Shown one piece after another: positions 37,873 to 38,550 of a DNA stretch of 54,900 nt. The first letter of the stretch is position 1, and each line of letters begins with the position of its first letter. The stretch is from a virus (taxonomy: Duplodnaviria > Caudoviricetes): positions 1-54,900 of the IMG/VR virus record IMGVR_UViG_3300028897_000401. One strand, 5' to 3'. Position numbers and translations under genes: made by a program. The notes under the pieces are model-generated. The model had not been told where the DNA came from. It saw nothing but the letters and a program-made list of their open reading frames with translations, and ran no database searches.

Positions 37873-38490
37873 ATGCTTAAGGGGGAACAGATGACTCAGA
37901 AAGAAATGTTTGGTGGAGGGGGAAAGAAGGAGGATAATTTCATCCCACGAACGAAGGGTGGCTACGAATTAAGGGACGCGGCGTCGGCTCTCATTAAAGA
38001 AATCCGGCGCGGAAACGAAGAAGAGGCTTTCTTCTGGTGTTGGGAATTGAGCAAATCGTTTCCCAACTATATCTGGAAGCGATTGCTAATCTGTGCGGTT
38101 GAAGACGTCGGGTTGGCCGATCCAAACGTCATAGTCCAACTCAATGCGTTGGCGAACGCATGGCATCTTTGCAGGACGTGGCAAAAGAAGGGAACCATCG
38201 AAGAGGACTTCATGGCTCAGGCGGTTCTTGTTTTGTGTCGTGCCCCCAAATCCAGAGAGGTGGATGATTTCAAGAATCATTGTATGGAACAGTTCTACAA
38301 AGATCGGGACAAGGGGGTTAGAAAAAGCGTGCCTCAATATGCCCTGGACGGCCACACGAGCGAGGGCAAAAAGAAAGGTTTTAGTGACGTTGATTGGTGG
38401 CACGACGTTCATCAGCCGGAGCAGGGCGGAACCAACAAATACAGCCAGGGATGCCTGGAGTTTTGCAAAAGGCTGGACAATAAAAAATAG
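37873..38490 (+). CDS. stand-alone MgsA/RarA C-terminal-like domain protein
   Basis: SALIKEIRRG...WKRLLICAVEDVGLAD...AVLVLCRAPKSR...YALDGHT; no Walker A motif. Confidence 0.7.
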   Translation: MLKGEQMTQKEMFGGGGKKEDNFIPRTKGGYELRDAASALIKEIRRGNEEEAFFWCWELSKSFPNYIWKRLLICAVEDVGLADPNVIVQLNALANAWHLCRTWQKKGTIEEDFMAQAVLVLCRAPKSREVDDFKNHCMEQFYKDRDKGVRKSVPQYALDGHTSEGKKKGFSDVDWWHDVHQPEQGGTNKYSQGCLEFCKRLDNKK

Positions 38491-38524
38491 CCGGTAGCAC
38501 CAAGACAACCTTTTAGAAAAAGCG
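38489..38524 (+). ncRNA. solo TIGR-like unit
   Basis: AGCC-ggtagcacca-AGACAACC-ttttagaaaa-AGCG, an exact 36-nt match to the array unit architecture. Confidence 0.75.
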
Positions 38525-38550
38525 AAACCCATCTTCGGATGGGTTTTTTA
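38525..38550 (+). terminator. intrinsic terminator
   Basis: AAACCCATC-TTCG-GATGGGTTT followed by TTT. Confidence 0.75.

Follow-up and report, generated by a model that had tools for sequence, protein, structure and literature searches.

The RNA-guided TIGR-Tas system was first described in 2025, and its dual-repeat architecture was set out by Faure et al. (2025, Science, PMC12045711). According to the available portions of that paper and of Xu et al. (2026), the arrays are made of 36-nt units in which an edge repeat, spacer A, a loop repeat and then spacer B follow each other, with CC and AG anchors around the spacers. Usually 5-15 or more units stand in a row, the array begins with a truncated edge and ends with a truncated edge and a terminator, and a Nop-domain TasA protein is encoded in the same phage genome. 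Mature 36-nt tigRNAs span from mid-edge to mid-edge (Faure et al. 2025, PMC12045711) and a guided, nuclease-free TasA is reported to act as an RNA-guided transcription repressor (Xu et al. 2026, bioRxiv 10.64898/2026.09.09.750476). The natural targets of the guides, as well as the origin and growth of the arrays, are among the questions raised for TIGR-Tas (Faure et al. 2025, PMC12045711, Discussion). Dual-repeat Tas proteins are described as cutting the pre-tigRNA by means of a Tyr/His loop (Y289/H296 in SpTasH). The seeds of TIGRFinder, in the available description of the program, require at least four intervals; hence, a unit standing alone would not be catalogued.

Two arrangements from outside TIGR are also close to the one reported here. 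The 3' UTR-derived bacterial small RNAs, such as CpxQ and SroC, share the terminator of their mRNA; they base-pair with mRNAs and need both Hfq and RNase E. Mini-CRISPR arrays and solitary repeat units borne by viruses carry one or two guides apart from a full locus, and their spacers have identifiable viral targets.

The window, that is the whole stretch of DNA that was analysed, is a complete virus record of 54.9 kb in a single contig, with a terminase gene at 44804-46240. Besides a dual-repeat array and a tasA gene, it contains one more unit, AGCCGGTAGCACCAAGACAACCTTTTAGAAAAAGCG, a lone TIGR unit of 36 nt read directly from the window at 38489-38524 on the plus strand. This lone unit lies 2 kb from the main array, from which three to four unrelated genes separate it, and 8.7 kb from tasA; it shares the plus strand with the main array and with all the neighbouring genes. 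The features are the following.

28925-29806, plus strand: tasA, a 293-aa Nop-domain protein and the presumed guide partner (Pfam PF02371, E 2.8e-5, above the cut-off).
35498-36478, plus strand: main dual-repeat TIGR array, in which 27 units of 36-39 nt follow each other head to tail.
37826-37855, plus strand: promoter-like site of sigma-70 type (TTGACA, 18 nt, TG-extended TAAAAT), by consensus match only.
37873-38490, plus strand: MgsA_C-like (RarA C-terminal-like) gene (Pfam PF12002, E 6.6e-13), the TAG of which overlaps the first two bases of the lone unit.
38489-38524, plus strand: lone TIGR (tigRNA) unit, made of the 5' half-edge AGCC (38489-38492), spacer A (38493-38502, 10 nt), the loop repeat AGACAACC (38503-38510), spacer B (38511-38520, 10 nt) and the 3' half-edge AGCG (38521-38524).
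38525-38550, plus strand: intrinsic-terminator-like hairpin with a 9-bp stem, a TTCG loop and a T-run, by consensus match only.

In the main array the edge repeat reads AGCG/WGCC and the loop repeat is the same AGACAACC, with spacers of 10 and 10-11 nt. The box-like anchors are the most conserved columns of the array: a C precedes every spacer and an A follows every spacer in 26/26 units, the anchors reading CC...AG in both edge and loop, which differs from the CCA/UG given for TaTIGR in the available literature. In the lone unit all 16 conserved positions of the array pattern are exact and all four box-like anchors, CC before and AG after each spacer, are present. The edge repeat stops at both flanks of 38489-38524, the preceding four bases matching it at 1/4 positions and the following four at 2/4. 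The unit coincides exactly with the mid-edge to mid-edge 36-mer of mature tigRNAs and is, for this reason, the first and the last unit at once. By itself it is predicted to be unstructured (MFE -1.3 kcal/mol).

As far as the available portions of Faure et al. (2025) and Xu et al. (2026) describe TIGR-TasA, the lone unit agrees with it in the build of the unit, in the anchors, in the Nop-domain TasA of the same genome and in the way it starts and ends. It differs in that a single unit is found, far from array and tasA and behind an unrelated gene with a promoter-like site. Minimised synthetic arrays of 1-3 units (Faure et al. 2025, available portions) resemble it in that a single unit can yield a Tas-bound 36-nt tigRNA, but there full edge repeats were needed on both sides, whereas the natural lone unit has half edges. 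Split sub-arrays and intragenic tigRNAs, as covered in the same portions and in those of Xu et al. (2026), likewise present units that are separated by non-array DNA and that overlap or abut coding sequence, although these cases are stem-loop sub-arrays ~ 450 nt apart or units inside tas. The lone-unit arrangement itself is not mentioned in the available portions of Faure et al. 2025, Xu et al. 2026 and 10.64898/2026.08.11.744272, and supplementary locus tables may already list this contig or lone units. The succession of stop (38488-38490), unit (38489-38524) and hairpin (38525-38546) is the placement of a 3' UTR-derived small RNA: as with CpxQ and SroC, a small RNA would lie between stop and intrinsic terminator with an A/U-rich stretch at its presumed 5' cut, but unlike them the lone unit carries the protein-binding anchors of a DNA-targeting guide. 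The likeness to mini-CRISPR arrays is that of a mobile element with a minimal array, the repeats and proteins there being CRISPR and Cas. The lone unit is a small twist on the known TIGR system, and it confirms the published architecture more than it overturns anything.

The agreement of the lone unit with the array pattern was compared with what chance would give in several ways. With two or fewer mismatches allowed, the fixed pattern was met 12 times in the window, 11 times in the array and once at the lone unit, while 0.01 were expected from shuffles. With a position-weight scan trained on 26 array units and allowing flexible spacer lengths, the lone unit scored 26.9 bits, which is the level of the best array units; the highest score in 300 dinucleotide shuffles of the contig was 23.2 bits, and 24 bits was not reached in any of them (0/300). 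Furthermore, an Infernal sequence profile built from the 27 array units, with the lone unit left out, ranked the lone unit first in the whole contig (15.8 bits, E 8.8e-4), and the best match outside the array and the lone unit reached 6.7 bits (E 0.94). Rfam gave no family at E <= 1 in the region 28000-39500.

The lone unit starts on the A of a stop codon since the open frame 37873-38490 ends with TAG at 38488-38490. Translation of this frame may in fact begin at an internal ATG (37891), which a strong ribosome-binding site precedes. On the other side, the very next base opens the hairpin AAACCCATC/TTCG/GATGGGTTT (38525-38546), behind which TTTATT is read. The terminator scan reports this hairpin once, on the minus strand, and its reading as a plus-strand terminator was taken directly from the sequence; within the window it occurs only once and is not a repeated element. 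The RNA fold of 38479-38556 has an energy of -16.9 kcal/mol. We also note that the A-run 5' of the unit could pair with the T-run 3' of the hairpin, through A/U pairs only. A sequence-only reading of this DNA had described a single perfect 36-nt guide unit starting on the TAG of a RarA-C-like gene, as the main array starts on a TAG, and followed directly by a terminator. Each part of this description holds: the exact pattern and the scores given above, with the lone unit as top match of the full-genome profile scan and the next best at E 0.94, are not those of a background match, the Pfam MgsA_C match agrees with the gene identity, the first array unit (35498) lies on the TAG of the open frame 35263-35499, and the hairpin follows the unit with zero gap.

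The promoter-like site 37826-37855, which matches the consensus at 11/12 positions and has the TG extension, is located 18 nt upstream of the MgsA_C-like gene; in 26500-46000 the plus strand has just one further site of this kind, at 32111-32140. Beyond the hairpin, the next gene starts 12 nt past the T-run and no promoter-like site of its own was found; the terminator may therefore be leaky and the unit intercistronic rather than strictly 3'-terminal. That gene opens a plus-strand sugar-modification cluster (38562-43161) with an NAD-dependent epimerase/dehydratase, a DegT-family aminotransferase and others.

The lone unit is also present in other assemblies of the same phage. A separate metagenome contig of 1815 bases (L063) carries the gene, the unit and the hairpin in identical form, with three substitutions further on, and contigs of three further runs (X2, X3 and X4) span the lone unit with zero differences. 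Hence, the unit did not arise through an error of assembly. Among the strain contigs, no presence/absence difference was found at this position. In the main array, a contig of run X2 holds an extra 36-nt unit with new spacers between units 21 and 22 and three substitutions in unit 21 (region 36225-36296); another change in the same run, a contig that skips 36 nt in the array (35528-35565), is weak, since it is seen in a single contig whose shorter side counts 30 letters. Between the array and the lone unit, an X2 contig skips 453 nt (37290-37744), so that the second of two tandem paralogous genes is missing. These two genes (36849-37256 and 37323-37736, plus strand) encode 135 and 137 aa with signal-peptide-like N-termini and have no Pfam match.

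The protein that would bind the guide was assigned from the same window. TasA matches PDB 9MTY, the TasR of Faure et al., with E 1.9e-11, and TasH with E 3e-6. No nuclease domain was found in the 293-aa protein, which places it in the TasA type. Of 61 viral loci with the repeat type of this array, 37 have a homologue of TasA beside it; 59 of the 61 had been found in IMG/VR by the bare repeat pattern (35 with a homologue) and two through the protein itself (both with a homologue). Given that 35 of the 59 pattern-found loci encode a TasA homologue, the repeat type and the protein clade travel together. In all distinct C-termini of the clade (23/23) the motif Y...KLG..H is conserved, and Y279 of TasA aligns with the catalytic Y289 of SpTasH. 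The His follows the Tyr at +9 in 21/23 C-termini and at +10 in 2/23, including the TasA studied here (alternatively at +1), versus +7 in SpTasH (Y289/H296). A Nop-domain Tas protein, alternating edge and loop repeats, a period of ~ 36 nt, anchors around the spacers and truncated-edge ends, which are features of the dual-repeat systems, are all present in this phage. A ParB_N-domain gene (43583-44317, plus strand, Pfam E 1.4e-14) is located beside the terminase genes, 14 kb from tasA; some tasA genes are described as having a ParB-like gene in their operon (Faure et al. 2025, PMC12045711, available portions), and here the two are not adjacent.

We next consider how arrays and units are placed in related phages. 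Among 40 non-redundant array starts in the related viral loci (L001-L061), which stem from related phages and are not independent events, 17 lie on the stop of an upstream open frame of at least 60 codons or directly next to it. Arrays with fewer than four scored units, arrays less than 300 nt from the end of a locus and duplicate 20-nt flanks were left out of this count. Where the stop is overlapped, the A or AG with which the first unit opens also belongs to the TAG, TAA or TGA, and the upstream frame is often tasA: it is TasA-sized in 10 of the 17 cases. Ten other whole records with this repeat type were scanned for units away from an array, G001-G005 at two or fewer mismatches and G006-G010 at one or none, the reversed-pattern controls giving 0 everywhere. 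A lone unit far from the array was present in one of them only, G003 (a phage fragment, the record of L019), at 26697-26732 on the minus strand, the arrays of this record being at 5124-5339 and 19369-20534 on that strand too, with the small second one 14 kb from the main one. This unit starts with TGCC, 11 nt past the TAA stop of an 87-aa open frame, and no terminator is evident after it.

The sequence-only reading had gone further and proposed that units disperse or insert at TAG-CC sites. Dispersal is real but uncommon, a lone unit being found in 1/10 other records, while insertion at TAG-CC finds no support. Indeed, the stop varies, with T/AG in 9 of the 17 stop-linked starts, TA/A or TG/A in 6 and mere abutment in 2, and the lone unit of G003 lies at TGCC, beyond a TAA. 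Moreover, no target-site duplication is visible at the flanks of the lone unit, and the sole gain of a unit between strains took place inside the array and in register.

For the lone-unit locus itself, no diverged relative was found, the identical copies all coming from near-identical strains. The 4.8-kb region around the unit had no DNA match in the phage collection and the MgsA_C-like protein no relative in the viral-contig collection; its distant phage homologues share 38% identity at most and are annotated as AAA-ATPase. Among the other TIGR phages, an MgsA_C-like gene occurs only in L006/G002 (37% identity), where no unit follows it; this gene is too distant to be an orthologue.

The analysis establishes the lone unit itself and where it lies, that it is not due to chance, the presence of a Tas protein and the arrangement at stop codons across the family. 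The lone unit is probably a real, stand-alone guide unit belonging to the TIGR-TasA system, a mini-array with a single unit that has the start and the end of an array and that would be transcribed from a promoter-like site, its function being deduced from sequence. Since the promoter-like site goes together with an array-like start and end and with an unstructured unit, the locus can be read as a one-guide transcription unit in which a promoter is followed by the MgsA_C-like gene, the guide and a terminator. That guides are made from 3' UTRs, or as tails of mRNAs, as the sequence-only reading had suggested, is consistent with the family, given the 17/40 stop-linked starts and the unit of G003 located 11 nt past a stop.

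Transcription from the promoter-like site 37826-37855 would yield the lone unit as the tail of the MgsA_C-like mRNA, and the 5' end of the unit would be released within or beside the A/U-rich stretch before AGCC, by the Tyr/His loop of TasA or by a host RNase. A TasA dimer would bind the unit via the CC and AG anchors that flank both spacers. The guide would then lead the nuclease-free TasA to a DNA site at which spacer A matches one strand and spacer B the opposite one, and TasA would bind and block this DNA rather than cut it, the likely output being repression of transcription. In favour of a working guide, the lone unit shows no change in L063, X2, X3 or X4, whereas X2 has variants of the main array. 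By analogy with the minimised arrays, which were processed only with full edge repeats, the half edges on both sides speak against it, as do the possible leakiness of the terminator, the position of the His at +10 (or +1) rather than +7 and the target searches, in which no match of a guide was found. In these searches the guides of the 27 array units, the lone unit and a candidate unit at 13447 described below were taken in both tandem geometries with gaps of 0-2, and neither the contig nor 545 kb of related loci contained a target with two or fewer mismatches. With spacer A joined to the reverse complement of spacer B (gaps 0-2, exact), the viral-contig collection gave 0 matches and the genome-contig collection 10 stretches, representing 6 independent sites in unrelated taxa. 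By a rough estimate, chance gives about 3 where base frequencies are equal and more where genomes are AT-rich; the exact matches in public collections do not exceed what chance yields.

It is also possible, though we find it doubtful, that the lone unit is a relic, namely the original last unit of the array, left behind together with the array's terminator when ~ 2 kb of genes (36479-38488) were inserted between units 27 and 28. Such a unit may no longer be processed; this explanation is mainly about origin and only partly about function. It would account for the absence of a terminator of the main array's own: a zinc-ribbon open frame (36483-36713) begins 5 nt after the last array unit, a hairpin-like site at 36529-36545 sits inside this frame, and the first convincing terminator downstream is the one that follows the lone unit. 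However, arrays followed directly by a gene, with no terminator, are common among the relatives (e.g. L013, L020, L021, L027, L044, L052 and L061); terminators 6-19 nt after the last unit were seen in L008, L010, L019, L028 and L029. Both break points fall exactly at unit boundaries, which favours a split, but a random insertion would meet an exact unit boundary in only about one of 36 cases. The DNA in between is in flux, holding the two tandem paralogues of which one is skipped in the X2 variant, and sub-arrays split by non-array DNA are known (Faure et al. 2025, PMC12045711, available portions). Nevertheless, no repeats or duplications flank 36479-38488 and no break in base composition is seen around it, the composition being flat. 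Finally, the lone unit still has the perfect consensus, which only 7/27 array units have, and a strong promoter-like site now serves it, both of which argue against a unit left over from a split.

A further, improbable reading is an action in cis. Here TasA would bind, and perhaps cut, the unit within its own mRNA, and the unit would not be a DNA guide; removal or masking of the terminator hairpin would then tune either how stable the MgsA_C-like mRNA is or how much transcription reads through into the sugar-modification genes. The position of the unit exactly between stop and terminator fits this, as does the downstream cluster (38562 onward) with no promoter-like site of its own. In the available literature, dual-repeat Tas proteins cut pre-tigRNA by the Tyr/His loop, and the loop motif is present in the TasA of this phage. 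On the other hand, a cis-acting unit has no precedent in the available portions of the TIGR literature (Faure et al. 2025; Xu et al. 2026; 10.64898/2026.08.11.744272). Moreover, its spacers would be free to drift, yet those of the lone unit keep normal lengths and an array-like composition.

Even more speculatively, and in our opinion very improbably, lone units on or after stops could be seeds of arrays, a process writing one unit at the 3' end of a gene and the arrays then expanding in register. If true, this would account at once for the array starts at stop codons, for the lone units behind unrelated genes (here and in G003) and for the extra unit inside the array of the strain variant, and the lone unit would be a snapshot bearing on how TIGR arrays arise without adaptation genes. 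Finally, the idea that the lone unit fits the repeat pattern by chance and is unrelated to the TIGR system can be rejected with near certainty: 8 of the 59 IMG/VR pattern loci are indeed exact lone matches in coding-like sequence, with neither array nor TasA in the stretch examined, but an array with the same repeats lies on the same strand only 2 kb away, and the pattern (0.01 expected), shuffle (0/300 at 24 bits or above) and profile (E 8.8e-4) tests all stand against it. As exact lone matches do occur in very large collections, the deciding point is the co-occurrence with an array in one 55-kb genome.

As a probable solitary guide unit, the lone unit bears on both the study and the cataloguing of TIGR systems. 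A natural single-guide locus with a promoter-like site and a terminator would be the simplest object for a test, with one guide, one transcript and one presumed target. Furthermore, whole-array searches miss some guides of a system, given the minimum of four intervals in TIGRFinder, and the 17/40 array starts at stop codons point to guides as mRNA tails.

Outside the array and the lone unit, the flexible scan gave three more plus-strand matches of at least 19 bits, at 11683-11720, 13447-13483 and 28756-28791, where 0.077 are expected from shuffles; the minus strand had none of at least 16 bits. Infernal does not back them, 13448-13479 being reported at E 0.94 and the other two being absent at E <= 10, and they are candidate units only. 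The one at 28756-28791 (21.4 bits, spacers of 9 and 11 nt) is in a 203-nt gap, 134 nt upstream of the tasA start. The one at 13447-13483 (19.4 bits) has the exact loop motif of the array and lies in a 390-nt gap after an AAA ATPase gene. In the predicted fold of 13425-13505 its half-edges pair and the helix extends as a 12-bp stem and a 9-bp outer stem (MFE -32.7 kcal/mol, z -4.6, 0/200 shuffles), so that in this model the candidate looks like a stem-loop-type tigRNA in a phage with a dual-repeat array. At 11626-11720 (plus strand), two unit-like stretches of 12.6 and 22.0 bits are found within the first 50 codons of the AAA ATPase open frame 11576-13132, and the 9 bases between them recur as spacer A of the 13447 candidate.
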